Part shown: piece by piece, positions 21,891-51,557 of the stretch
Layout: every line of letters begins with the position of its first letter
Numbering within the stretch: position 1 is the first letter of the stretch
IMG/VR virus record: IMGVR_UViG_3300046167_000921
Location: 64,001 to 128,000 of that record
DNA: 64,000 nt
From: a virus
Direction: 5' to 3' (one strand)
Program-made: the position numbers and the translations under genes
Notes under the pieces: generated by a model
What the model was told of the DNA's origin: nothing
The model's input: the letters and a program-made list of their open reading frames with translations, nothing else
Database searches by the model: none

Positions 21891-22478
21891 CTACCTTACT
21901 TTCTTGTCTAGGCTAATATTAAGGTCATATTCCTTGCCTACAAACCAGCCAATAACAAACATCACTACTCCATAGAGGAGACTTCCGAGTAGGCCAGCTT
22001 CCTTATCGTGCGATGCAGATTTTCTAACCCCTATCACCTTAAACAGGTATTTGAGTACACAGCCTAGTATGAAGGTCGCTAGGCGAATGATATTTTTTCC
22101 AAGGAAGAAAATAAGTCCTGCATTTTTGCGGAGAGAGGCTCTACGGACAAGAGGGTTGTCGAGGACGATCTCTGGATTCTTCTTTGCTTTGATCAAGAAC
22201 TCCACCTGCTTGATAGGATTAGGGCCTACCTGAGCACTGAGCTCTTTCATAGCCTGCTCGTATTCGCGTGTCTTTGACACCTTTATGTAACTCTGGGCTA
22301 TTTTTTTAGGAGACCCTGCTCTTTTGAACGTTGAGGCGACATCCCGTTGCACACGCTTGAAGATTTCGATCTTCTCTTTGATCTTCTCTTTCACATCGGA
22401 GAGAAATGCTTGCCTCTCAAGTTGAGCGATCCTATTTTCAAGAACGGCGATTTTCTGTGATGCTGTTAGTTGTCTCAT
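21891..22478 (-). CDS. Hypothetical protein with coiled leader and two hydrophobic segments
   Basis: Start moved to MRQLTAS (AAGGG RBS). Five [KR]xA[SG] motifs. Confidence 0.7.
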   Translation of the reverse strand: MRQLTASQKIAVLENRIAQLERQAFLSDVKEKIKEKIEIFKRVQRDVASTFKRAGSPKKIAQSYIKVSKTREYEQAMKELSAQVGPNPIKQVEFLIKAKKNPEIVLDNPLVRRASLRKNAGLIFFLGKNIIRLATFILGCVLKYLFKVIGVRKSASHDKEAGLLGSLLYGVVMFVIGWFVGKEYDLNISLDKKVR

Positions 22479-27028: not shown

Positions 27029-27040
27029 ATAAATAAACTA
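27029..27040 (-). promoter_or_regulatory. Putative late promoter TAG-N6-TAT
   Basis: TAG-TTTATT-TAT, 36 nt upstream of ATG 26993. The TAG is also the upstream stop codon. Confidence 0.5.
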
Positions 27041-28111
27041 ACGAGAAAGGAGGTGGGTGAGGTCGGGTGGGAGACTATTGGCTAGATGGTAGTTTTTGGT
27101 TAAGAGGAGCTGCTCTAGGGTCAGATTTCTAGCCCCTTTGAGGTTCGCACCCTCAAGGTCAGCTCCTGTGAGCTTCGCGTCTCTGAGGTCAGCCTTTGTG
27201 AGGTCAGCCCCACGAAGGTCAGCCCGTCTGAGGTATACCCCTCTGAGGTCAGCCCCTATGAACTTTGCCTCTCTGAGATCAGCCTCTATGAGGTTAGCAC
27301 CTTCGAGGTCTGTTCCTTCGAGGTAAGCCCCTGTGAGATCAGCCCCCCTGAGCTTCGCCTTTATGAGGTCAGCCCGCTGGAGGTTCGCCCTACTGAGGTC
27401 AGCTCCCGTGAGGTTCGCACCCTCAAGGTCAGCACCACTGAGGTTAGCACCACTGAGGTTAGCACCCTCAAGGTCTTTTTCCCCAGATCGGGCTAAAGTC
27501 TCCCAGCTTGAAAACATCCTTTTTACACGATCAATGACCCCCGCTTCCCTCTCAAGGGAAGCGACTCTTAACTCAAGTTCTTGTAGGGTCTCTCTCTGGA
27601 GCTGGTTGAGCATCTTAGATGCGTCACTCCCTCTCTTAACAGGATTTTTAGGCTTCCTCTTTCCTCCGACCCTTTCAACAGAAAGGGTCTTCCCTTTCCA
27701 ATCATAAGTGATCACTATCTTTCTTTTTCGAGGACCTGGAGACCCGATGATCTCAATGTAATCAAAACGCTGAGTAACCATCTTTATATCGAGAGTATTT
27801 ATTTGAAGTTTTAAGCTACGCAAAGCGTCATCAATACGATCATCTAAATCAGCCCAATTCTCGTCTACCTCGCTCCTATCGGCAATGAAGATTGCGATGT
27901 CTTCTGTTGTAGCGTGTTGCGGAAGACCAACCTTGCTCGCTCTTTTTACCTCTTTTCGGGTTCTCTCCTCTACCGTCTCACCCTTGTGGGAGAATTGGTC
28001 AGAAATAGACAGAGGTATCCCTCCTGCATTCTTGAGATGAGTTCCTGTCAGATCTGCATCTCCAAGTTTCGCACCTTCAAGTGCTCTTTTTACGTCATTT
28101 GGATTAGCCAT
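27038..28111 (-). CDS. Chimeric pentapeptide-repeat protein
   Basis: About 20 A(D/N)Lxx repeats in the C-terminal part. N-terminus homologous to 28162..28899. Confidence 0.9.
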   Translation of the reverse strand: MANPNDVKRALEGAKLGDADLTGTHLKNAGGIPLSISDQFSHKGETVEERTRKEVKRASKVGLPQHATTEDIAIFIADRSEVDENWADLDDRIDDALRSLKLQINTLDIKMVTQRFDYIEIIGSPGPRKRKIVITYDWKGKTLSVERVGGKRKPKNPVKRGSDASKMLNQLQRETLQELELRVASLEREAGVIDRVKRMFSSWETLARSGEKDLEGANLSGANLSGADLEGANLTGADLSRANLQRADLIKAKLRGADLTGAYLEGTDLEGANLIEADLREAKFIGADLRGVYLRRADLRGADLTKADLRDAKLTGADLEGANLKGARNLTLEQLLLTKNYHLANSLPPDLTHLLSR

Positions 28112-28112
28112 G

Positions 28113-28167
28113 ATTATGCTCCTTGTTACTTGTGTTCACAAAGAGAGGCTCGATAGAGAAACTATCG
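28113..28167. repeat. 55-bp exact direct repeat, copy 1 (promoter motif + RBS)
   Basis: attatgctccttgttacttgtgttcacaaagagaggctcgatagagaaactatcg, identical to 28901-28955. Contains TAG-TTTCTC-TAT (minus) and AAGGAG. Confidence 0.95.
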
Positions 28168-28899
28168 GTTGAGATCCTTCTTCAAGGCTTTGATCTCTCT
28201 TTGAAGCTCTCTATTCATCCGAGAAGCTACGCGGATCTGAGAAGCTTTGCGACCTCCCTTTTCCTCTTTCTCTCTGCGGGCTTTTTCTTCGACCGTCTCT
28301 CCCTTGTGGGGGAATTTATCAGAGATAGACAGAGGTATGCCTTTCGCATCTGATAGACCCGCACCTGATAGATCCGCACCTCTGAGTTTAGCTTTTCTGA
28401 GATCCGCCTCAATGAGATCCGCACCTAGGAGCTTCGCACCTCTGAGATCCGCTCTTACTAGCTTCGCACCTGTTAGATCCGCACCTGTGAGTTTAGCATC
28501 CTTAAGATTCGCATCTGTGAGATTCCCACCGCCAAGTTTCGCACCTGCGAGTTTAGCATTCCAGAGATACGCATTTCTGAGATCCGCATTTGTGAGATCC
28601 GCACCCTCAAGATTCGCGTCCTCAAGATTCGCACCCTTGAGATCCGCATCTATGAGAACCGCTCCTATAAGTTTCGCACCAAAAAGATTCGCTCCTGTTA
28701 GATCCGCACCTGAGAGCTTCGCTCCTATAAGTTTCGCACCAAAAAGATTCGCTCCTGTTAGATCCGCACCTGAGAGCTTCGCACCGTCAAGATCCACACC
28801 TTCAAGATTCGCTTCAGTTAGATCCGCATTTCTGAGATCCGCACCTGATAGATTCCTATCACCCGCAAGTGCTCTTTTTACGTCATTTTTATTAGCCAT
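28162..28899 (-). CDS. Pentapeptide-repeat protein
   Basis: More than 30 consecutive A(D/N/K)Lxx repeats. Confidence 0.95.
   Translation of the reverse strand: MANKNDVKRALAGDRNLSGADLRNADLTEANLEGVDLDGAKLSGADLTGANLFGAKLIGAKLSGADLTGANLFGAKLIGAVLIDADLKGANLEDANLEGADLTNADLRNAYLWNAKLAGAKLGGGNLTDANLKDAKLTGADLTGAKLVRADLRGAKLLGADLIEADLRKAKLRGADLSGAGLSDAKGIPLSISDKFPHKGETVEEKARREKEEKGGRKASQIRVASRMNRELQREIKALKKDLNR
28661..28780. repeat. Exact 60-bp tandem duplication (four pentapeptide units)
   Basis: 28661-28720 is identical to 28721-28780. Confidence 0.95.
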
Positions 28900-28900
28900 A

Positions 28901-28955
28901 ATTATGCTCCTTGTTACTTGTGTTCACAAAGAGAGGCTCGATAGAGAAACTATCG
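28901..28955. repeat. 55-bp exact direct repeat, copy 2
   Basis: Identical to 28113-28167. Confidence 0.95.
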
Positions 28956-29046
28956 AGTCAGAGGGGCTTCGCACTCACAAGCTGATGCCGACTTTAAAGT
29001 AGTTATAGAAAGGTATATCTGAGAGATAAGTTATCTCAAACGCCCA

Positions 29047-38173: not shown

Positions 38174-39850
38174 TTAGAACCTACCGCCGTCTTCCTTCGG
38201 TTTCGAGTACTTCAGGTCGAGGTTTGAGGCAATTTTCTCTAAAACATCTGTGTTCTCAGCCATAGCTCTACCCGCTTCACCATAGACGCCTCGTAGAACT
38301 TCGTTGAATTGAGAATCGTTCAATGTCCACATATCACGCTCCAGCTTCGCTTTTGTAGTTACGGGGTCAACATTGAGCAGTTCTAGGATCACATCTATAT
38401 CAAGCGATCCCTTTTGGTAGAGGTTGAAGAGAGCATCGAATGTGTCTTGATTGTCTCTGAGTCCAAGACGGGTGAAGCTCAGGGTGGGGTGGAGTACGAC
38501 CTCTTCCCCATCTTCATCTTCCTCAATGAAACCCATACGTCTACACATAGGTTTGAGGATGTTCTCCTCGACCATCTCTTGGAGAACTTCCCTCATAAGC
38601 ATATAGCGAGTATTGATGACCTCTAGATTGATTCTATCTCCTGAGTAGCTGGACTCACCAGACAAGAGAGACTCAGTTACACCTAACCCTGCATACATCT
38701 GTCTGTCGGTCATGTCATATTCACCTGAGAGTTCGAGCAGGCGAGAGTCTGCTCCCATCTCTTCCCAACTAACTTGGAAGTTAGCGATGATAGAATAATC
38801 GGGGTCTTGGAGTGCAAGATCGACCTGCTCTCTGAGAGCTTCAACGTCATTTGCATCCATATCCTCTGCATACACAAGGCGGATAGGTGTCATATGCCTA
38901 GAGGCAATGGAGGTCTGAGCTTGCCTTAGCTTGTCCCTATAGACAAGAATGCGGAGACACCTTTCAAGCATAGAGTGTCCTCTGGGTTCATATTGTGATT
39001 TCTTCCTCGCCATGTAGTAGACAAATGAGCCTTCGTCAGGGTCTGTGTTAAGCCTGATGTTCCTGCCCTCTCGTATGGCTTCAACCACATCATCGGGCAT
39101 AGAGTCTACAATCCTTGTAGCGGAGGGGTCTTGTAAGGACGCTCTCTCAACAATGTCTTTTGTCTTGCTATCTGGGATAAGCTCAATGATCTTCTCACTT
39201 GTGAAGGGAAAGCTTTCCATGTGAACTTGCTCTGGAGGTAGGACTCTGATTCCCGTCCAGCCTTTATAGTTCTTTTTGAGCCAGCGGTACGCCCTTTCAT
39301 TTGAGTCTGGATATTCTTCCCACTCGATCACCGCCTCACCTGATTCTTTTAGGACGTTTCGTTCTCGGTGGGTTACTGACTTGGGCATATCTGGGTTGCT
39401 GTCCTCACAGAACACGAAGACCTCACCGAGGAGGTTGTATTCGTGCAGTATTTCTATGAGCCTATGAAGCAGTCCTGTCCTCCTAGACCACTTTTCACAG
39501 AAGCGTAGAGCTTCATTAGCCATGTCTCTATTACGAGATCGGGGCAACCCAAGTCTGATCTTAGAGAGAGGCAACTCTGTGTGTAGGTCTACCGCCTGTC
39601 CTACAAAAGGGTCGGTTCTGTAGAAGAATCTGAAATAGTTACGCTGCTCATCTTGGGATTGGGGTAACTCTAAGAAGTCTGTAGACAGTTCAGGTGAGTA
39701 GAAGTTTCCTCCTGAACCCATCATAGAACCAGAGGTGGTCATTGCGACTTTAACCCTAGACCGCATATCGCTTGGGTCGAGCTTCTTTGTGATCGCTTTA
39801 GACCTACTCTTGACTTTCCCTATTTCTGTGCCGAGATCCTCTTCACTCAT
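38174..39850 (-). CDS. Portal protein
   Basis: 558 aa. FFYRTDPFVGQAVDLHTELP, GEVF, long helix RILVYRDKLRQAQ, YAGLGVTESLLSGE fit a portal-like layout. Phage context supports it. Confidence 0.75.
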   Translation of the reverse strand: MSEEDLGTEIGKVKSRSKAITKKLDPSDMRSRVKVAMTTSGSMMGSGGNFYSPELSTDFLELPQSQDEQRNYFRFFYRTDPFVGQAVDLHTELPLSKIRLGLPRSRNRDMANEALRFCEKWSRRTGLLHRLIEILHEYNLLGEVFVFCEDSNPDMPKSVTHRERNVLKESGEAVIEWEEYPDSNERAYRWLKKNYKGWTGIRVLPPEQVHMESFPFTSEKIIELIPDSKTKDIVERASLQDPSATRIVDSMPDDVVEAIREGRNIRLNTDPDEGSFVYYMARKKSQYEPRGHSMLERCLRILVYRDKLRQAQTSIASRHMTPIRLVYAEDMDANDVEALREQVDLALQDPDYSIIANFQVSWEEMGADSRLLELSGEYDMTDRQMYAGLGVTESLLSGESSYSGDRINLEVINTRYMLMREVLQEMVEENILKPMCRRMGFIEEDEDGEEVVLHPTLSFTRLGLRDNQDTFDALFNLYQKGSLDIDVILELLNVDPVTTKAKLERDMWTLNDSQFNEVLRGVYGEAGRAMAENTDVLEKIASNLDLKYSKPKEDGGRF

Positions 39851-41027: not shown

Positions 41028-42377
41028 GTGGCTAGTAAAAACGTGCCTGTTGACAAAAAACTCTGGAGTCAGATTCAATCTCTAGCTAAAGGTGAGAGAA
41101 AGTCACCAGTTACCAAAGGTGGAGAGACTGCAAACCCTGTTAATGGGGGTGCGGGCTTTAAGGTCTTTCCGTCTGCTTACGCTAACGGTTGGGCTCTTGC
41201 TCAGTATAAGAGGCTTGGAGGCAAATGGAAGAAAGAGGCGTCTTCCAAAGGCAAGCTAGTTCTTCTAGGGAGAGACTCGGGAGCTATGGTGTACTCTTTC
41301 TACTTCCTCCGTCTCTCACAAGACTACTTCTATCATTACACTTACAAAGATAGAGCTGAAGAAATCTTAGAAGATGGATACCTTCGACCAAATTTCTATA
41401 CCGACCAAGCAGGGGCTGTTGGAGTATTTGCAATATCTGGGACATATGGTCAAGAGGTGACTCGCGTGCAATTGAGCGGGACACGCAAACACCATATGGG
41501 CAATATCGTTGCTATTAAATTCAAGACTAGGACTCTCCCTAAGTACGGCTTTGTGGAAGAAGTAATTTGGGATAAGCCCGTGAAGCTAAGAGACGTAGAA
41601 GTTGTGCCTGTTTCAGAGGTGCTACAAGATCTCAAGTCTAATGCGGACATAGGAAGTCAGTCCAAAGTCTACTACGACCTTAAGAAAGCCATACAGGTGA
41701 AGAAAGAAGTGCAAGAAGGTAAGAAAGCTTCTCACGGGAAGCCTCGTAAGTGGGATGAGAGGCATTGTAAATCTAAGACTTGTGGCGAGATGGGCTTCTC
41801 TGAAAAGGCGTCTTGCAAACCCTATAAGGATTGTTATCGGAAAAACGCATCTGGTATGATACCCCCACCTCCCCGTACTCGCGATCTCATGTCTCAACTC
41901 CCTAAGATTTCCTATCAATATGAAAACAGGTACAATAATAAGGGAATTCAACCCTACCTTGACCGCTGTTATTGGATGGTTTTTGACGGCGTATTAACAA
42001 GTCGTGGATACCCGAGCCAAGCACCTGAGATCAAGGGTCTGGGCGAGAGTCTAGCCCCCTTGATCTCATCTTTAAAAGAACACTTCAACCTCTTAAGACC
42101 AGAGCAGTTTGCCAAGTTGAATGGAGTTCCTTTTAAATGCGATTACCTAGAAACAGCACAAACACCTTCTTATCCCTCTGGGCATACGACCCAAGCGTAT
42201 TACATAGCTCACAAGTTGTCTGACAGATACCCTCACCTCAAGTCTGAGTTTTTCTCCGTCGCTAAGATGGTGGCGGAGTCTCGAGTTGATCGGGGGGTTC
42301 ACTTTTTCTCGGATAACGAGGCGGGGGTTCAGTTAGCTGAGAAGTTACATACCAGAGATCAGAAAAGCTTTAACTAG
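41028..42377 (+). CDS. Multidomain protein: small N-domain, ART-like domain, Cys-rich domain and PAP2 phosphatase/haloperoxidase domain
   Basis: PAP2 motifs LKEHFNLLRP, PSGH, SRVDRGVHFFSD. ART-like YHYT...ILEDGYLRP...GVFAIS is less certain. Confidence 0.7.
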   Translation: MASKNVPVDKKLWSQIQSLAKGERKSPVTKGGETANPVNGGAGFKVFPSAYANGWALAQYKRLGGKWKKEASSKGKLVLLGRDSGAMVYSFYFLRLSQDYFYHYTYKDRAEEILEDGYLRPNFYTDQAGAVGVFAISGTYGQEVTRVQLSGTRKHHMGNIVAIKFKTRTLPKYGFVEEVIWDKPVKLRDVEVVPVSEVLQDLKSNADIGSQSKVYYDLKKAIQVKKEVQEGKKASHGKPRKWDERHCKSKTCGEMGFSEKASCKPYKDCYRKNASGMIPPPPRTRDLMSQLPKISYQYENRYNNKGIQPYLDRCYWMVFDGVLTSRGYPSQAPEIKGLGESLAPLISSLKEHFNLLRPEQFAKLNGVPFKCDYLETAQTPSYPSGHTTQAYYIAHKLSDRYPHLKSEFFSVAKMVAESRVDRGVHFFSDNEAGVQLAEKLHTRDQKSFN

Positions 42378-42378
42378 T

Positions 42379-42390
42379 TCGCTCCCTTAT
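42379..42390 (+). promoter_or_regulatory. Putative late promoter variant TCG-N6-TAT
   Basis: TCG-CTCCCT-TAT, 38 nt upstream of ATG 42429. Confidence 0.45.
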
Positions 42391-42428
42391 AGTTTTTTAA
42401 TGGCTTACTTCAAACATAGGAGGTAGTC

Positions 42429-44351
42429 ATGTCACGAAAAGCTGTTAAAAGAGATGACCCCAAGCTCAAAAACACGGGCAAAGGCGGTCTAGATACTTGG
42501 TTCTCTGGTCATGGTGGAGGCAAACCCGATGAGAGAGCCACTTGGGGCGATTGGGTGGCGATCACCCCCGTAAAGCACACCATCGAGAAAGAAGACGGTA
42601 AGAAGAAAACTTATGAACCAGGTGACATTGTTGGCCCATGTGGGATATCTAGTGAACCAGAGTGGTCATCCCTTACAGGAAAAGGTAAAAAGCCACTCAA
42701 GTGTATGCCAAGAGAGAAGGCACATAAAATGCCCAAAAAAGACAGAGCTCAACTCGCGAAGAACAAGAGGAAGCAGGAGAATAAGAGCAAAGGTAAAAAG
42801 CCTGTTAACACTCCTACTTTCTCTGAAGAGGCAAAAGAGATTAAGAAATCCGCGTCGAGGGTCGCTTCGAGATACTTGAGGTCGGACTTCTATAGACAAG
42901 TATCTCCCCCAGACGAGCTTTCAAGCCTATCCCAAGGTACGCCCGCCCATAGAACAGAGGACTCTAGACCACAAAGTAGTAGTCTCCCTAACGGAGACTT
43001 CGCAAGGGATATAGGTAGACCTTCTCCTGACTCTCCTTCTTTGAAGCACAGAGACCTGCAGGATCAGCCTAAACCATCGAGTGGGCTTGATCTTGGATAC
43101 GTGCATGATAGCGGGTCTGGCTCTGCGAGAGTAATACCTTATAATTCTGGCTTCTCAAACAACTCGTCGCCCAACAGAAAAGCTTCTCTTTCTAGGGACA
43201 TGGAAACCGCGATCTACGAGTCTTTTTTTGGGTGGTATGATATACCTGTAAAAGGCAAAACGTCCACTAACGGCATGAAGCTGTCTGTATTAGGTAAGAC
43301 CCTAGAGGATATCTACAAGGCATATGGTCTTGTAGGGGGTTATCTTAAAAAAAATCGCATTGGTCATAAGGTGGCGACTCGCAGAAGGGTAGAGGAGGCT
43401 CGATCTCCGCAAAACCGCAAGATCCTCACCATCTACATACCCGACGGGGAAGAATGGCGTGGTATTGCAGAAGAGGTATCTCAACTCCTACATAAGGGTC
43501 GGTATGTGGGTTGGCAGAATATTCCAACTCCCCCTCTTTACCAACATTATGCCAACGCTGTATTTTACAGGAATGATAGGGATTCATCAGGTGCGTATAT
43601 CCCTACCCGCAGATCCGCAGGTTCGCAACCCGCACAAGATTTAGGCGGGGTCAGCACTTGGGTGACTAAAAACAGGCAAGACCAAATTAACCGAAACACC
43701 GAACCTCTGAAGACAAGACCAGATTACGGTGATGGCTCTCCTGATCGAGCCCGAGTCTTGCCCCTCCCAGACGGACACCCGAAAGGAAGGGACGAGATAC
43801 GGCAAGGCCCTGGGGTTATGAACACACCCCCTAGCTCATCGGGTCAAGGTTTGGCAAATAGACCTCCCAAGAACCCTAATTCTATCTCTGAGAAGCCTCT
43901 CCATCAAAGACCTCGATCTAGTGGCATTCCAGGAGATCAATACGGACACCCTTACATAGATCAGTCCGCTTCAACAGGCCTGAGGAGACGTGGTGTTCAC
44001 ATGAAGCAGGTTAAGATGGAAGTGGAAGAGATTTGGGACGTTGACGCTGACGGTAACCTTATTAAGGTCGGTCTTAAGTCTGTTCTCCCTCCAAGGGTGA
44101 GGCAAAGAGAGCAAAGGGGCGAGGTCAAAAGAAAAACTAAGATAGACCACAAGAGGAAGACTACTGCCGAGAAAGCTAGGGATTCCCTTAAAGCGAAGAG
44201 GCGATACAAAAGAAACCCTAGTAGACACATCCGATATCAAGAAAGACGCAGGAAAACACCTAGTCTTTTTAAACGCATGCCATCAGGGGGAGTGTCTTCT
44301 CAAAAACAAGTTCAAGACCGAGACAAAAAAACAAGGGAGAAAAGAAAATGA
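42429..44351 (+). CDS. Large basic, low-complexity multidomain protein
   Basis: 640 aa. N-domain GGLDTWFSG...KCMP, internal KSASRVASRYL, Pro/Ser/Gly-rich and Lys/Arg-rich tail. Confidence 0.7.
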   Translation: MSRKAVKRDDPKLKNTGKGGLDTWFSGHGGGKPDERATWGDWVAITPVKHTIEKEDGKKKTYEPGDIVGPCGISSEPEWSSLTGKGKKPLKCMPREKAHKMPKKDRAQLAKNKRKQENKSKGKKPVNTPTFSEEAKEIKKSASRVASRYLRSDFYRQVSPPDELSSLSQGTPAHRTEDSRPQSSSLPNGDFARDIGRPSPDSPSLKHRDLQDQPKPSSGLDLGYVHDSGSGSARVIPYNSGFSNNSSPNRKASLSRDMETAIYESFFGWYDIPVKGKTSTNGMKLSVLGKTLEDIYKAYGLVGGYLKKNRIGHKVATRRRVEEARSPQNRKILTIYIPDGEEWRGIAEEVSQLLHKGRYVGWQNIPTPPLYQHYANAVFYRNDRDSSGAYIPTRRSAGSQPAQDLGGVSTWVTKNRQDQINRNTEPLKTRPDYGDGSPDRARVLPLPDGHPKGRDEIRQGPGVMNTPPSSSGQGLANRPPKNPNSISEKPLHQRPRSSGIPGDQYGHPYIDQSASTGLRRRGVHMKQVKMEVEEIWDVDADGNLIKVGLKSVLPPRVRQREQRGEVKRKTKIDHKRKTTAEKARDSLKAKRRYKRNPSRHIRYQERRRKTPSLFKRMPSGGVSSQKQVQDRDKKTREKRK

Positions 44352-44950
44352 ACAACCTCAAAGTACTGCAGTTACTTTTAGTGGCACTCCGCTCAGCCCA
44401 TTGGTCGCATTGGACGAGCCATTGGCAAGTTAAGGGTTCTTCTTTTTATGGAGACCATGAACTCATGGAGAGGTTATATGCGGGCTTAGTTGATGAAATT
44501 GATACCTTAGCAGAGAAGATCGTATCTAACTTTGGCTCAGATTCTGTCAACCCTGTAGAACAAGCCCAAGCTATGGCTAATGTCATGATGCCTGTTGCAG
44601 AAGATAGGTCGAACCAGAGTCCGCTTGAGCGAGCTTTGTTTGTCGAGGACGCCCTCCAGATCTTCTTCAAAGCAGCTTACAACTACCTGAAGAAGAGCGG
44701 TTTTTTAACGCTGGGTATGGATGATTTCATCATGTCAATGGCGAACAACCATGAAACCAACCTATACTTGCTCAGGCAAAGACTCAATAAAAACCCTTCA
44801 AAGACAGCCTTCAATAAGTACAACCCCACGGAGCTAGTTGGCCAGCTTTTAAAAGTATTAAGCAGTCATGGTCTCCATGAGGCATACGAACACATAAAGA
44901 GACACAAGGTTCCTCAAGTTGTTGATGACGCTTGGGTTAACCGAGATTAA
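44348..44950 (+). CDS. Dps/ferritin-like protein
   Basis: HWQVKGSSFYGDHELMERLY...EIDTLAEKI (Dps-type H...H...E...D...E). Confidence 0.75.
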   Translation: MNNLKVLQLLLVALRSAHWSHWTSHWQVKGSSFYGDHELMERLYAGLVDEIDTLAEKIVSNFGSDSVNPVEQAQAMANVMMPVAEDRSNQSPLERALFVEDALQIFFKAAYNYLKKSGFLTLGMDDFIMSMANNHETNLYLLRQRLNKNPSKTAFNKYNPTELVGQLLKVLSSHGLHEAYEHIKRHKVPQVVDDAWVNRD

Positions 44951-46047: not shown

Positions 46048-47901
46048 TCACTTTCCCCGATTTATCCTATCTTTGAGGCTGTAGGAAGAAGGCGACCGAG
46101 GAGCTACTCTTCTAGGGTCGCTCCCTCCTCTGCCTGAGTATCTGCCCGCTGTGGCAAAGGTCTTCCCTCCAGCCATCGGGTGGGAGTAGTTTGACCTGCC
46201 TTTCGCGAAGTATCGGGTCTTCCCGATACTGTTTGAAGCGAGCCATGTCATTCTGACAATCGCATCTGACATATCGTCGTGCTTACCTGCGACCTGAGGA
46301 GCTTCTACTGTGATCAGGTGCTTTGAGTGTACTGTCTGTTGCAGTTCTAGCATCTCAACAATATAAGGCTCGTTTCCATCTTGGAGGGGGTCTTTTCTGT
46401 TATAGAGCCTCAGCTTCTTATCCCACATCATATCTTTGAAGTTCTGGTACATCTGAGAAGTGATTTGCTTCGTCATGTTAACCGAGGTGAGTTGCTTCAA
46501 GCCCCTTTTTTCGAGGGCTTGCTGGAAGGGGATGCCCGCCCATTGGTCAAAGATCCCTTCAGCGAAGTAGAACTTGTTAGAGAACCCCAGCACCCAATCT
46601 GCGACATCATCAAACTCTAGTCTCTCTTTGTCCACATAAAGACCTTCTCCCGCTTTGATCATATCGACAAGGTCTAATACGATGCGTCCGTCTTCTTCAA
46701 TATGTCCAATTGCAATAGCACTGCCGTCACCTACAAGTGCGAGGTCAATACCTACAAAGTGAGGTCTTCTGGCGGGTGCAGACCTGTTAGCTGAGAGGGA
46801 GGGGTCTACACAAGCGAGTAGGTCTTCCTCTTTCTCTATCCAGCCTCTTGTTCTATCCGTGAACTCGCCTCCGTACTCTGTGAAGAAGACTGCAGGGTTC
46901 TTGAGGTAGTGTTTCTCAAACTCTTGAGCTGGTACGGTAGGGTTGACCTCCCATGTAGGAGCTTGGACAGACAGGATATTATCAGCCGCCTGTCCTCCTC
47001 TCATGCCGATTTGGAAGATAGTATAAAACAGACCCTGTCTGCCAAGGGGAGAAGAGATAAGTATAACCCTACCCTCAACCTCCCCTATAGGTACAGTTGG
47101 ATTATCGGGGTCTTTCGCGGAGTAGGCTGATGTTGAAGGTACAACCGCGTTATAGACTTCCTCCGCCCCTGATTGTCCCGTTTCGGTAAAGTGGGCTACC
47201 TCATCAAGGATGACGCATATGTTACCTGCACCACGAAGACCTTTAGCGACACAGGATCTGAAAGTGACCTTCAGTGTGGCTTTAGCTGTAGGGTCTTCTA
47301 TGTAACGCCCATACTTCTCAACGTCAGCGGGTGTCTGAAACCTAGCATAGCTAAGAGTGTTATTCGCGGTGTAAGGCCCAAAGAATGCACAATTCCGATA
47401 GTGTCCAGACACCTCTTGATAGAGTAGGCCTGCTTGGTCTTTGTCTGTAGCTACAGAGATTATTTGTATGTTGTTGGATGCTGGCAGGCCGTAGAACTTT
47501 TGAGGGTTCTCTTTTTTGATGAGCTTATATGTCTCGTAGGCGGCGATGCACGCGGATATTGTAGTCTTCCCAGACCTCCTGCCTATGGAGAGAACCATCT
47601 CTCGCCTCTGCTTGCCTGGTATAACCTCTCCTATGTTGCATCTGCCTTCATCAAAAAGCTTTTTGAGGTAACTCTTCTCCGTGTGTACTTCTACGTTCTT
47701 CCTTGACCAATCAGAGATCTCGAAAGTCTCTGTGTCATCAAGCTCCAGCCCGTAGTGAGCTTTCAAAATAACTCTCTGCACAGGGAATAGGTTCATTTTT
47801 AAGCCCCAAGGAGACTCCACGAACTCTATGATATTAGCATCTTTTTCGGATCTCTTCCCAGCTTTGGCACTTGCACTGATTGCAACTGAGGAAAGACTCA
47901 T
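46048..47901 (-). CDS. Terminase large subunit
   Basis: Walker A IGRRSGKT, Walker B CVILDEVAH, ISSPLG, RNase H-like nuclease FVGIDLA...FDQW...HDDMSDA. Confidence 0.9.
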   Translation of the reverse strand: MSLSSVAISASAKAGKRSEKDANIIEFVESPWGLKMNLFPVQRVILKAHYGLELDDTETFEISDWSRKNVEVHTEKSYLKKLFDEGRCNIGEVIPGKQRREMVLSIGRRSGKTTISACIAAYETYKLIKKENPQKFYGLPASNNIQIISVATDKDQAGLLYQEVSGHYRNCAFFGPYTANNTLSYARFQTPADVEKYGRYIEDPTAKATLKVTFRSCVAKGLRGAGNICVILDEVAHFTETGQSGAEEVYNAVVPSTSAYSAKDPDNPTVPIGEVEGRVILISSPLGRQGLFYTIFQIGMRGGQAADNILSVQAPTWEVNPTVPAQEFEKHYLKNPAVFFTEYGGEFTDRTRGWIEKEEDLLACVDPSLSANRSAPARRPHFVGIDLALVGDGSAIAIGHIEEDGRIVLDLVDMIKAGEGLYVDKERLEFDDVADWVLGFSNKFYFAEGIFDQWAGIPFQQALEKRGLKQLTSVNMTKQITSQMYQNFKDMMWDKKLRLYNRKDPLQDGNEPYIVEMLELQQTVHSKHLITVEAPQVAGKHDDMSDAIVRMTWLASNSIGKTRYFAKGRSNYSHPMAGGKTFATAGRYSGRGGSDPRRVAPRSPSSYSLKDRINRGK

Positions 47902-49256: not shown

Positions 49257-51557
49257 CTATAGGTCAAAGCCGCCGAAGAGGATGTTTCCGAGATCCTTAT
49301 CTTTTGGGGCTTCTACGTTTAGTTGAATATGCTCACTCGAGGAAAGGTTGAATTGGTTAGGGTCATAAGTGTTACTAAAGAGAGATGCAATTTTCTCACT
49401 GTCTGTAGAGTTCGCGATCCTAATCATTTCTTCCTTATAGTCTGCGGGGTTCTCTACGACCTCAGACACGGAGGCCACAATCACCTTATTGTATTTCTGG
49501 CAAGTTCCCTGAGAGTTGAAGACACAAGAACCACACTTGCTAGTTTTTAACAAGGTAGGGATCTGGTTTGCTCTGTGTATTAAAGCACCCTTATCGCACC
49601 CTTCAGTCCCATTGGACAGGTATGCCTCTGCGTCTACATAGGCGTGTCCTGAGAGACCTTCGTGCTCATCTCTTAGGGAGGCGATCTTAGATTGGTACTC
49701 ATGTACTACGTTCTCGTTGAATCTTGAGGTAAGAAGAATATTTAACTCTTCACCGACCGCTCCTTCACTCATTTTTCTCTTTAGCCAAGAAGAGACTTTC
49801 TGCTCAGTGGCACTTACAACATTAGATTTTTTATGACCCAGCACATGAGCAGTTTCTTCTCCCACATACACATTAGACTCGCTTGGTGTCGCCGCGAATT
49901 CGAAAGCTTTTCTCACGAAGTCGTTAGGGTCTTCTATAGAGCTTATCTTTTCATATTGCTCTTTGCCCAATAGTCCCGTCGATAAGAGCTTATCAACTTT
50001 TGCATTGGCGGCCTTCCAAGAATTCGCGTTGGCTCTCTTCTCTCTACTAGGGAGAGGCTCTACTGCTTTGTTTCGAGCCTTAGTCATCCTATGCTCTGTT
50101 AGGCTATACTCTTGATAAGACCTCTGCTCTGCAGGTCTGGCTATGACTTCAAGAACAGAGGCAAGCTTGTCTTCGGGTGTCTTCTTTCCTTGGATAGCTT
50201 CCCCTACTTCTTCGTAGGAGATCTCACCCGCCCTTAAGAGTTGAGATATCTTTAACATAGCGGATTTCTGACGCTTTGCGTATTCTCGTTCTTCTTTACG
50301 GGGTACACTTGCTTCCCTAGAGATCTTCTCTTTCTTCATATTGAAATATGAAGTACTCTCACCTTGCCCGCTATAATCTGATGCCGCCGACGGTCGGCTT
50401 GCCATCCTATACAAAAGGTTTATCTTCTCTGTAGGAGTTCCTTTAGAGTTTAGGGCCTTTGTTGTCTCGCTCTCGCCGAGAAACCCTTGTGAGACGAGCT
50501 GTCCTGCAATCTTCTCAAGTCTCCTTTGAGCGGTCGAAGTTTCTCTGTGTTCCCTTGAATCAACCTTTTCAACAATAGTAGAGGTTTTCTTCAGGTTACT
50601 AGTGCCGTCATGGTTAGGAAACCAAGTCTGTGTAGCAACAGACTCTGGTTGCTTGCTCATTTGAGAGAAGAGACTCTTGATCTTCTCTTTGTAGCTTGAG
50701 CCTGCTTCCTTCTCTATGCCACAAGCTTCAAACTTAGGCTTGAGCAAAGAGTGGGCTTTCTTCCAAGATATATCTTTAACACTAGCGACAACTTCCATCC
50801 CCAAGAACCTGTCAAAAGGAGTTCCTTTGGCGATCAGGTACATGCATGAAGCACACTTCTTGTTAATTTCCGCATCCCACTTTCCATTGAAGATACCTGG
50901 GAAGTGGCTCGCTCTGATGTAGACCTTTCCGTATAGACCTGAATCTTTCGAGAGCCTCCCCCTTAGCTCCTTGTCCTCTACCGATTTGAGATCTAGGTTG
51001 TCAAAAGCGAGCTTCCTGTATGCCTTTTCTTTTTTTTCTCGGTAAGAGTCACCTGGTAACTTGCTTTGTTCTTTTCGGTATGGGTTTAAATAAGGCTCAT
51101 TCTTATGGTTGGTGTTAGGGATGATAGTCGTACCATCAGTAGAGGCAGAACCCCATAGCTCTTGAAGGGCTTTGAGGTTGCTTGCCTCAGGGTCATTGAG
51201 GTTTCCCTCTTCCATATTCTTAATAACTTCTTCAAGGGATCTTACACCCTTAAGGTCGGGCTCGGGTTGTGAAGCAAGCCAAGAGTGATCCACAAGGTTA
51301 ATGTCTTGACCTGCGTCTCTTGTGAGTTCCGCCATATTCAAGTCGGCTTCGACAGCTAAGCCATCAGGCATATCAGAGTGTAGATTACCATCAGGAGGGA
51401 CGATACCTCGAGGTAAACCTGCGATCCCTTTAGCTTCAGGGAGGCGTGCTCCGTCGAGGACACCATCATTATATTCGGTGTCGAAGTGGAAGCCGTCTAA
51501 CATGTAGTTAGAACCGTTTGTAAGGGAGAATCCTCCATTGGGTGTCTTGCTACTCAT
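49257..51557 (-). CDS. Large putative virion/head protein with internal repeats
   Basis: 766 aa. Three helical repeats of about 45 aa, two GLxGxxY motifs, Cys clusters KCASC and KCGSC...TC. Confidence 0.7.
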   Translation of the reverse strand: MSSKTPNGGFSLTNGSNYMLDGFHFDTEYNDGVLDGARLPEAKGIAGLPRGIVPPDGNLHSDMPDGLAVEADLNMAELTRDAGQDINLVDHSWLASQPEPDLKGVRSLEEVIKNMEEGNLNDPEASNLKALQELWGSASTDGTTIIPNTNHKNEPYLNPYRKEQSKLPGDSYREKKEKAYRKLAFDNLDLKSVEDKELRGRLSKDSGLYGKVYIRASHFPGIFNGKWDAEINKKCASCMYLIAKGTPFDRFLGMEVVASVKDISWKKAHSLLKPKFEACGIEKEAGSSYKEKIKSLFSQMSKQPESVATQTWFPNHDGTSNLKKTSTIVEKVDSREHRETSTAQRRLEKIAGQLVSQGFLGESETTKALNSKGTPTEKINLLYRMASRPSAASDYSGQGESTSYFNMKKEKISREASVPRKEEREYAKRQKSAMLKISQLLRAGEISYEEVGEAIQGKKTPEDKLASVLEVIARPAEQRSYQEYSLTEHRMTKARNKAVEPLPSREKRANANSWKAANAKVDKLLSTGLLGKEQYEKISSIEDPNDFVRKAFEFAATPSESNVYVGEETAHVLGHKKSNVVSATEQKVSSWLKRKMSEGAVGEELNILLTSRFNENVVHEYQSKIASLRDEHEGLSGHAYVDAEAYLSNGTEGCDKGALIHRANQIPTLLKTSKCGSCVFNSQGTCQKYNKVIVASVSEVVENPADYKEEMIRIANSTDSEKIASLFSNTYDPNQFNLSSSEHIQLNVEAPKDKDLGNILFGGFDL

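Follow-up and report, generated by a model that had tools for sequence, protein, structure and literature searches.

How the same short peptide comes to stand at the joints between several unrelated protein domains is the question raised by three consecutive genes, here called P0001, P0002 and P0003, which occupy positions 41028 to 44950 of the stretch of DNA analysed. This stretch, the window, comprises 64,000 nucleotides (nt), bases 64001-128000 of a 177,493-bp viral contig of IMG/VR that is estimated to be 57% complete, and the genome it comes from is that of an uncultured marine jumbo phage. A preliminary description of the window had proposed that motifs of the type [KR]-x-A-[SG] sit at the domain junctions of late proteins and are cut by a head protease with basic-x-Ala specificity. 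The current analysis suggests that P0001-P0003 are polyvalent cargo polyproteins that would be processed at [KR]-x-Ala/Ser by the prohead protease of the phage. Because the motif at the module junctions is the same as the motif flanking this protease, precursors cut by the phage's head protease are considered the most likely explanation, and we assign a probability of roughly 0.55 to the reading as a whole, in which both the cutting and the packaging are inferred.

According to this reading, P0001-P0003 would be built from ten autonomous modules, referred to as A to J, which belong to a large mosaic 'polyvalent' family of uncultured marine phages. [KR]-x-Ala-Ser(/Gly) is found at the module ends, in many cases with a short R-V-A-x-R-Y-L helix behind it. 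The junctions would serve as cleavage sites, with Ala-Ser as the scissile bond, for the phage's own prohead protease, P0127. During head maturation the precursors would be divided into their modules, which would then travel with the DNA, being packaged in the capsid and delivered to the host.

All the motifs that the preliminary description had listed for the first two genes are present, three in P0001 (KEAS, KKAS and KNAS) and four in P0002 (KSAS, RVAS, RKAS and RSAG), and their placement at domain junctions is borne out by the homologs. The search with P0002 gave 208 homologs, of which the best 120 were listed, with partial matches and varying extra domains. A profile of homolog coverage along P0001 and P0002, computed prior to any module definition, rises or falls precisely where the motifs lie. 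Of the BLAST alignment ends internal to the protein, 101 of 139 in P0001 (about 13 expected) and 79 of 172 in P0002 (about 12 expected) are within 6 residues of a motif Ala, and the clustering is seen at all seven motifs of the two proteins. The [KR]xA[SG] motifs of P0001 and P0002 sit on real module boundaries. In the AlphaFold model of P0001, for which 34 sequences were aligned, modules A, C and D are predicted with confidence, and 27% of the chain has a predicted local distance difference test score (pLDDT) below 50; the three motifs all fall inside such segments. A second element accompanies the sites, since the homologs contain 94 sequences of the form R[VI]Ax[RL][YF] where 0.5 would be expected, usually two residues after KKAS and ahead of modules E, I or A; this RVAxRYL element may have a role as a tag.

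The same modules recur, permuted and fused, in about 200 homologs. Their orders include F-A-C-E-I-J, A-C-E-F-I, E-D-F-I-J, E-D-F-I, I-A-J and many others, so that several unrelated domains share one chain in a varying architecture, which is a feature of polyvalent proteins. Fusion partners in the homologs include superoxide dismutase, GNAT, CCA-adding enzyme, 2'-5' RNA ligase, ART-PolyVal (PF18760) and InPase (PF18823). Module J, a Dps-like protein that is encoded separately here as P0003, occurs in relatives as an in-frame fusion behind modules I or A through KKAS or RRAS junctions. With the module limits drawn by the analyst, [KR]xAS has a density of 20.8 per 1000 residues in the short inter-module linkers of the homologs against 0.14 inside the modules, and the permuted control [KR]xSA reaches 8.0 per 1000 residues in the same linkers. 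On the tail of module F, RxA[SG] is found in 23 of the 38 distinct cases in which the protein continues after F. Stand-alone copies of module A are instructive in this respect: nine such proteins begin with M-SKNVP and others with MKTA-S or MRVA-S, internal copies read LRNA-SKNVP, and P0001 itself begins with (M)A-SKNVP. The starts of stand-alone module A genes fall exactly at the proposed P1' Ser.

A relative with a genome of 296.6 kb that is 95% complete (G005) encodes nine of the ten modules, all except D, in two genes with the orders G-H-F-B and A-C-E-I-J, and this polyprotein locus (L002) has the same portal-adjacent arrangement as the window. In a 997-aa (amino acid) open reading frame of this locus (L002:8543-11536), some 306 additional residues (aa 51-356), which run from CVPLH to ITGN and are followed by Ser, interrupt module A behind PSAY. 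This insertion looks like an intein, and its site is in the part of the module that is conserved best.

A head protease, which the preliminary description had left to be found, has been located outside the window in a head module (L001) about 60 kb upstream of P0001-P0003 and about 18-20 kb ahead of the window start. The gene order of this module is protease P0127 (452 aa), a 609-aa acidic protein, a 193-aa open reading frame and the major capsid protein. P0127 matches the PHROGs family phrog_18299, 'head maturation protease' (E-value 1.7e-14). It has no Pfam family at E-values up to 1 and no match in a sequence search of the Protein Data Bank, and neither Peptidase_S77 (PF03420) nor S78 (PF04586) matched in the phage genome. 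The AlphaFold core of P0127 (residues 48-266) aligns by VIA-align with the proteases of varicella-zoster virus (Z 9.2) and pseudorabies virus (Z 8.9) and with T4 gp21 (Z 8.7). Herpesvirus assemblins or gp21 account for every one of the leading 35 rows of that search; Foldseek alone gives only weak E-values, and the match to the assemblin family S21 is at the level of fold only. Judged by its predicted structure, P0127 is a divergent prohead protease of the herpesvirus-assemblin/T4-gp21 fold.

Two of the four [KR]xAS sites of P0127 flank this core and are near-invariant among 115 homologs with 46-77% identity. In W-D-K-[VI]-R-x-A-S (aa 21-28) the Arg and Ala are found in all 115 and the Ser in 102, and in P-x-x-W-x-x-K-x-A-S (aa 266-275) the Lys is conserved in 104, the Ala in 98 and the Ser in 71. 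These two sites are in disordered segments, whereas the other two are helical and not conserved. Relatives have two or three tandem KxA[SG] after the core, and KVAS also occurs at this point in the Tunturi_5 and phage G proteases. The gene that follows P0127 encodes the 609-aa protein, with ten [KR]xAS, DHHMGMED-type acidic repeats and EF-hand matches (PF13202, E-value 1.8e-9, aa 308-367); it is possibly a scaffold that binds calcium and is broken down. The flanking linkers of the protease, the scaffold-like protein and the candidate substrates thus have the motif in common, and the same is seen in G005. An isolated phage of 309 kb, Tunturiibacter phage Tunturi_5, offers a parallel observation: its gp328 (L003:3091-5574), annotated as 'DNA ejection protein', has five [KR]xAS against 0.85 expected, and the gene following its protease has 4 against 0.54. 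The head proteins of Tunturi_5 have no BLAST homologs in the window genome.

The motif has also been counted over the whole proteome. The window genome contains 92 [KR]xAS against 35.8 expected from within-protein shuffles, a 2.6-fold excess, and 75 are left once one paralogous C-terminal tail family is masked; G005 contains 118 against 52.3, with z of 9-10 across both genomes. Reversed and permuted control motifs are flat or depleted in both, and the shuffles and controls in the two genomes lead us to reject chance or composition as the source of the excess. The enrichment holds for the Ser form and not for the Gly form, since [KR]xAG shows no overall enrichment in the window genome (34 against 30.4). 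Some 22 genes with more than one site account for the excess (two sites in 15 against 3.6 expected, at least three in 7 against 0.6), and genes with one motif are at expectation (29 against 26.7). Because of this, the single motifs cited earlier in the genes at 51554, 55454 and 60151, although present, are regarded as background, as are the hits in RecA and PhoH, which the preliminary description had itself treated in that way. Taken by count alone, P0001 (3 against 0.4, P = 0.005) and P0002 (3 against 0.6, P = 0.02) reach nominal significance only. The genes with the largest excess are those of the scaffold-like protein (10 against 0.7), the protease (4 against 0.39) and a 766-aa protein (6 against 0.82), and the list for G005 is headed likewise by the protease, the gene following the protease and the ortholog of the 766-aa protein. 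Between the two 766-aa orthologs, which share 41% identity, four sites are conserved in position, and AG here aligns with AS there. Codons at the motif sites follow the usage of the genome, so that selection is seen to act on the peptide, and a motif at the level of DNA is rejected.

A counterpart in T4-like cyanophages allows the junctions to be compared between phages with different proteases. A protein search with module E against 50,697 phage records gave no match, and with module A the sole hit was cyanophage S-BM3, whose SBM3_00185 (L005:1033-2046; T4-GC119) is a 338-aa protein encoded beside gp15 and gp16, terminase and tail-sheath genes. It combines a PSAYANGW module A and a DUF5872-like module in one chain, and its junctions are [LIV]-x-Glu in contrast to the [KR]-x-Ala-Ser described above. 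In a wider set, the best 80 of 581 related IMG/VR stretches (taken as loci L006-L085), distinct module A heads read [LIV(F)]-x-E followed by KNVPTNP, with Glu at P1 in 18 of 18; Glu is at P1 in 25 of 28 DUF5872-like heads and in 5 of 5 CWxGY heads. The module-bearing proteins of the cyanophages contain 326 [LIV]xE against 227 expected and 25 [KR]xAS against 25.4. T4-type proteases cut after Glu (PMC5694885). Peptidase_S77 is found in four of the five cyanophage records tested and a P0127-type protease in none of four re-tested, S-BM3 included; the window genome and G005 are the reverse, with a P0127-type protease and no Peptidase_S77. The junction motif thus tracks the protease family, in a comparison of two lineages with related sequences within each. 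Such protease-matched junctions on the same modules are hard to explain unless the junctions are protease substrates. In the literature T4-GC119 is no more than a hypothetical protein carried by a mobile cassette (PMC3037559), and virion proteomics for it were not found in the accessible part of the supplements of Sullivan et al. 2010; its [LIV]-x-Glu between modules predicts, from sequence, that it would be processed by gp21.

These observations raise the possibility that module boundaries are a portable 'cut here' code, rewritten to suit the resident prohead protease, as [KR]-x-Ala/Ser in the assemblin-fold clade of marine jumbo phages and as [LIV]-x-Glu in T4-like cyanophages. We put this forward tentatively, its chances being a little short of even.

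A number of results weigh against processing of P0001-P0003 at these sites. Neither P0001 nor P0002 has a recognisable N-terminal capsid-targeting leader, the major capsid protein of the window genome is without a site of the [KR]xAS type, and two boundaries of P0002, at aa 290 and aa 337 (the latter with 13 alignment ends), have no motif. The two genes of G005 show only two canonical junctions, the others being KQGS, KSAM and KKGS, and in P0132, a 74%-identical ortholog, the Ala of both aligned sites is replaced by Gly, with KKGS in the place of the KKAS of P0001. Among the homologs, with module limits drawn as above, canonical [KR]xA[SG] is found on only 110 of 242 distinct module tails (45%), and some polyproteins have no motif at all though the protease assigned to the same contig keeps its sites. 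A loss of the P1' Ser or Gly where a module ends the protein was tested in the homologs and was not significant, and the counts from these sequences, which are related, do not represent independent events. The proposal of a basic-x-Ala head protease acting on modular cargo is supported in part, by the conserved sites flanking the protease core, its ten-site scaffold-like neighbour, the shuffling and fission of modules at motifs and the switch to x-x-Glu. It is weakened in its Gly form, for which an overall enrichment is lacking, even though AG and AS are found at equivalent positions of one ortholog pair in some cases.

The principal rival is that the junction peptides, [KR]xAS together with RVAxRYL, are uncut linkers or docking tags of modules that stay tethered and that might bind scaffold, portal or DNA, the likeness to the motifs of the protease and the scaffold-like protein then reflecting shared binding and not cleavage. 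Conservation of RVAxRYL far beyond the need of a bare cut site would be accounted for in this way, as would the canonical motif at fewer than half of the homolog junctions, and flexible linkers also allow the free shuffling of modules. A generic linker or tag would, however, not be expected to change to x-x-Glu in phages with a Glu-specific protease, and the motif flanks the catalytic core in disordered segments and is found there in tandem, as autocleavage sites are; we regard this alternative as unlikely, although it is the most serious one. That the motifs have no function, and merely reflect linkers rich in Lys, Ser and Ala that are inherited with their modules, the kinship of the homologs giving the appearance of a code, would agree with the nominal significance of the P0001 and P0002 counts, with the raised [KR]xSA control in linkers and with the decay of junction motifs in several lineages. 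This is improbable in view of the composition-controlled shuffles, in which the excess persists in two genomes with the permuted controls flat or depleted, the occurrence of the motif in unrelated proteins (protease, scaffold-like protein, 766-aa protein and tail family), the sites kept in position at 41% identity and the near-invariant Ala of two protease sites in 115 homologs.

Cutting by a different enzyme, before packaging or after injection, has also been considered, either by an embedded zincin (HELVH) or by a host protease. Among the polyproteins of relatives, P0021, P0022, P0056 and P0064 start with a HELVH module of about 240 aa, and Iyer et al. 2017 (PMC5512222) predicted autoprocessing by embedded metallopeptidases. 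The 177-kb fragment and the 95%-complete G005 both lack a homolog of this module, and the embedded zincin is rejected as the processing enzyme; the motif is moreover shared with the prohead protease and the scaffold-like protein and co-varies with the prohead protease family, which makes a different protease in general an equally improbable choice. Least probable is that the motif is a site of post-translational modification, for example by a basophilic Ser kinase. The consensus of such kinases has a basic residue three positions ahead of Ser, and LVRRASL in the gene at 21891 resembles Kemptide; a strict Ala ahead of Ser is, however, no kinase determinant, orthologs exchange Ser for Gly or Ala for Gly, and the equivalent T4-like junctions end in Glu, with no requirement for Ser; a kinase gene was also not encountered, although no search aimed at one was made.

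Processing of polyproteins by the head protease, the reading preferred here, can be compared with several known systems. Polyvalent proteins are mosaics of recombining domains in the context of virion genes, are predicted to be packaged and delivered, and are in some cases proteolytically processed (Iyer, Burroughs, Anand, de Souza, Aravind 2017, PMC5512222). P0001-P0003 are likewise mosaic and encoded beside virion and packaging genes, the homologs of P0002 are fused to PF18760 and PF18823, and enzymatic domains of the effector type, as in the polyvalent repertoire, are seen in the PAP2 of P0001 and in the homolog fusions to PF18760, PF18823, GNAT, superoxide dismutase and CCA-adding enzyme. 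They differ from many polyvalent proteins in that the embedded zincin, which is frequent and not universal there, is absent here and from G005.

Multi-site processing of head and ejection proteins by the prohead protease is known in phiKZ and SPN3US, where it is always after Glu; gp245 of SPN3US has tandem AxE sites and undergoes C-terminal autocleavage, and the processed cargo of this class of phages is ejected into the host (PMC5694885). One motif shared by head proteins, scaffold and the C-terminal linker of the protease is common to T4 gp21 (with the capsid-targeting sequences of IPI-III and Alt), to gp175/gp245 of phiKZ, 201phi2-1 and SPN3US and to the present case, and tandem sites after the catalytic domain are common to T4/phiKZ-class proteases and the relatives of P0127. 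The T4/phiKZ class cuts after Glu (L/I-x-E, S/A/G-x-E, A-x-E) in contrast to the proposed [KR]-x-Ala/Ser; its sites follow N-terminal propeptides, whereas here they would also separate autonomous shuffled modules; and its proteases are of Peptidase_S77, whereas P0127 is without a Pfam match. Herpesvirus assemblin cuts an Ala/Ser bond at its M and R sites. P0127 resembles it in the modelled core fold (Z 7-9.2), in the proposed P1 Ala and P1' Ser and in its proposed self-processing at sites flanking the catalytic domain, and differs in the basic P3, which is hydrophobic in assemblin, in an identity of only about 10% and in its candidate substrates, which are cargo polyproteins and not scaffold alone.

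The junction code had been called undescribed. This does not apply to mosaic proteins that are predicted to be packaged and processed (PMC5512222) or to multi-site prohead processing (PMC5694885), and it does apply to the Ala-Ser code of the junctions, the link between this code and an uncharacterised clade of assemblin-fold proteases, the RVAxRYL element and the switch of junctions with protease type, which are new here; text searches of PMC5512222 found neither a junction motif matched to the prohead protease nor the RVAxRYL element.

Coordinates of the modules, the junctions and other features have been collected in the Table. P0001-P0003 are flanked by a primase zinc-finger gene and the portal gene on one side and by the large terminase gene on the other, a virion and packaging neighbourhood of the kind in which polyvalent proteins are found. 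The stop codon of P0002 and the start codon of P0003 share the sequence ATGA (44348-44351), and this overlap suggests translational coupling. Of the late promoter motif of the preliminary description, no more than a TTTTATA-type element is seen, about 45 nt ahead of the P0001 start at 41028, and the enrichment of TTTATA-type elements upstream of the genes of the window genome is weak. Pfam assigns only two domains on the three proteins, the PAP2 phosphatase that closes P0001 and, weakly, DUF5856 on P0003; modules A, C and F-I matched no Pfam family and E only resembles DUF5872. Module B has a weak likeness to ADP-ribosyltransferases (Pfam Tox-ART-HYD1, E-value 0.047, which misses the cut-off; Atlas DarT/PARP/Arr clusters score below 0.9), and this possible relationship is a lead only. 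The region of P0001-P0003 had no match in a nucleotide search of the 50,697 phage records, and a pattern search of viral contigs with P0002 found no locus.

Table. Genes, modules and junction motifs of the polyprotein locus and related features (positions in the window unless stated otherwise).
Feature	Position	Strand	Description
Multi-site protein, 203 aa	21891..22502	-	five [KR]xA[SG] (5 against 0.37 expected) around two hydrophobic helices
Portal protein (context)	38174..39850	-	phrog_16240, E-value 1.3e-33
P0001	41028..42377	+	449 aa; modules A-B-C-D (limits from homolog coverage profile)
Module A	41034..41231	+	P0001 aa 3-68; PSAYANGW...GGKW; in 55 homologs; pLDDT 68-93
Junction KEAS	41232..41243	+	P0001 aa 69-72; 49 internal alignment ends within 6 residues; opens segment 69-96 with pLDDT below 50
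Module B	41259..41672	+	P0001 aa 78-215; YHYT...GYLRPNF...GVFAISG...EEVIWD
Junction KKAS	41721..41732	+	P0001 aa 232-235; 19 alignment ends nearby; within segment 207-241 with pLDDT below 50
Module C	41739..41837	+	P0001 aa 238-270; four-Cys mini-domain; in 43 homologs
Junction KNAS	41841..41852	+	P0001 aa 272-275; 33 alignment ends nearby; pLDDT below 50 at 271-273
Module D	41859..42347	+	P0001 aa 278-440; PAP2 phosphatase PF01569, E-value 1.4e-8, match aa 346-436; pLDDT 76-98
P0002	42429..44351	+	640 aa; modules E-F-G-H-I
Module E	42468..42830	+	P0002 aa 14-134; DUF5872-like; in 94-100 of 120 homologs; Atlas DUF5872 clusters 0.91-0.92
Junction element KSAS-RVAS-RYL	42846..42878	+	P0002 aa 140-150; site plus RVAxRYL mini-helix; KSAS at aa 140, RVAS at aa 144
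Module F	42879..43175	+	P0002 aa 151-249; conserved, low-complexity, ends NNSSxLRxA
Junction RKAS	43176..43187	+	P0002 aa 250-253; 16 alignment ends nearby
Modules G and H	43194..43604	+	P0002 aa 256-295 (G) and aa 337-392 (H)
Junction RSAG	43611..43622	+	P0002 aa 395-398, then S-QPAQDL; 24 alignment ends nearby; coverage 38 to 57 at aa 397
Module I	43626..44330	+	P0002 aa 400-634; conserved, very basic, apparently disordered; in 63 homologs
P0003 (module J)	44348..44950	+	200 aa; Dps/ferritin-like DNA-binding protein; phrog_3636, E-value 3.3e-11; Pfam DUF5856 weak
Large terminase subunit (context)	46048..47901	-	phrog_2, E-value 4.9e-25
Multi-site protein, 766 aa	49257..51557	-	six [KR]xAS and three [KR]xAG
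Scaffold-like protein, 609 aa	L001:9731-11560 (genome 45730-47559, outside window)		follows protease; ten [KR]xAS

Further observations concern other genes of the window that carry the motif. The 203-aa protein, in which the five motifs reported earlier are present, contains the stretch LVRRASLRK, close to the classic protein kinase A substrate Kemptide, and has a leader, ENRIAQLERQA-F, similar to the RIAxLE[KR]xAS leaders that other proteins of the genome carry. A pentapeptide-repeat protein at 27038-28111 has the KRAS and REAG ascribed to it, and another, at 28162-28899 on the minus strand, ends in the shared C-terminal tail RKASQIRVAS...REIKALKKDL; a longer antisense open reading frame over it (28247-29002, plus strand) is spurious.

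If processing by the head protease is true, a first specificity would be available for a widespread and uncharacterised clade of prohead proteases with more than 1,400 database homologs, relatives of P0127 being found in phage G, Tunturi_5 and cluster C mycobacteriophages, and the proteases of phages and herpesviruses would be linked by substrate preference as well as by fold. The packaged cargo and the mature protein starts of uncultured jumbo phages would become readable from sequence. If the portable code is also true, a shared pool of modules (DUF5872, PSAYANGW, four-Cys, basic DNA-binding tail, Dps, PAP2, superoxide dismutase and tRNA-repair enzymes) would be loaded as precursors, cut in the head and injected, and a phage protease would have the Ala/Ser specificity of herpesvirus assemblin. 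Through the cyanophage counterpart, the idea can be tested in phages and hosts that are in culture. Among the injected functions suggested by the pool of modules would be DNA protection by Dps and superoxide dismutase, tRNA repair, a phosphatase and possibly an ADP-ribosyltransferase.

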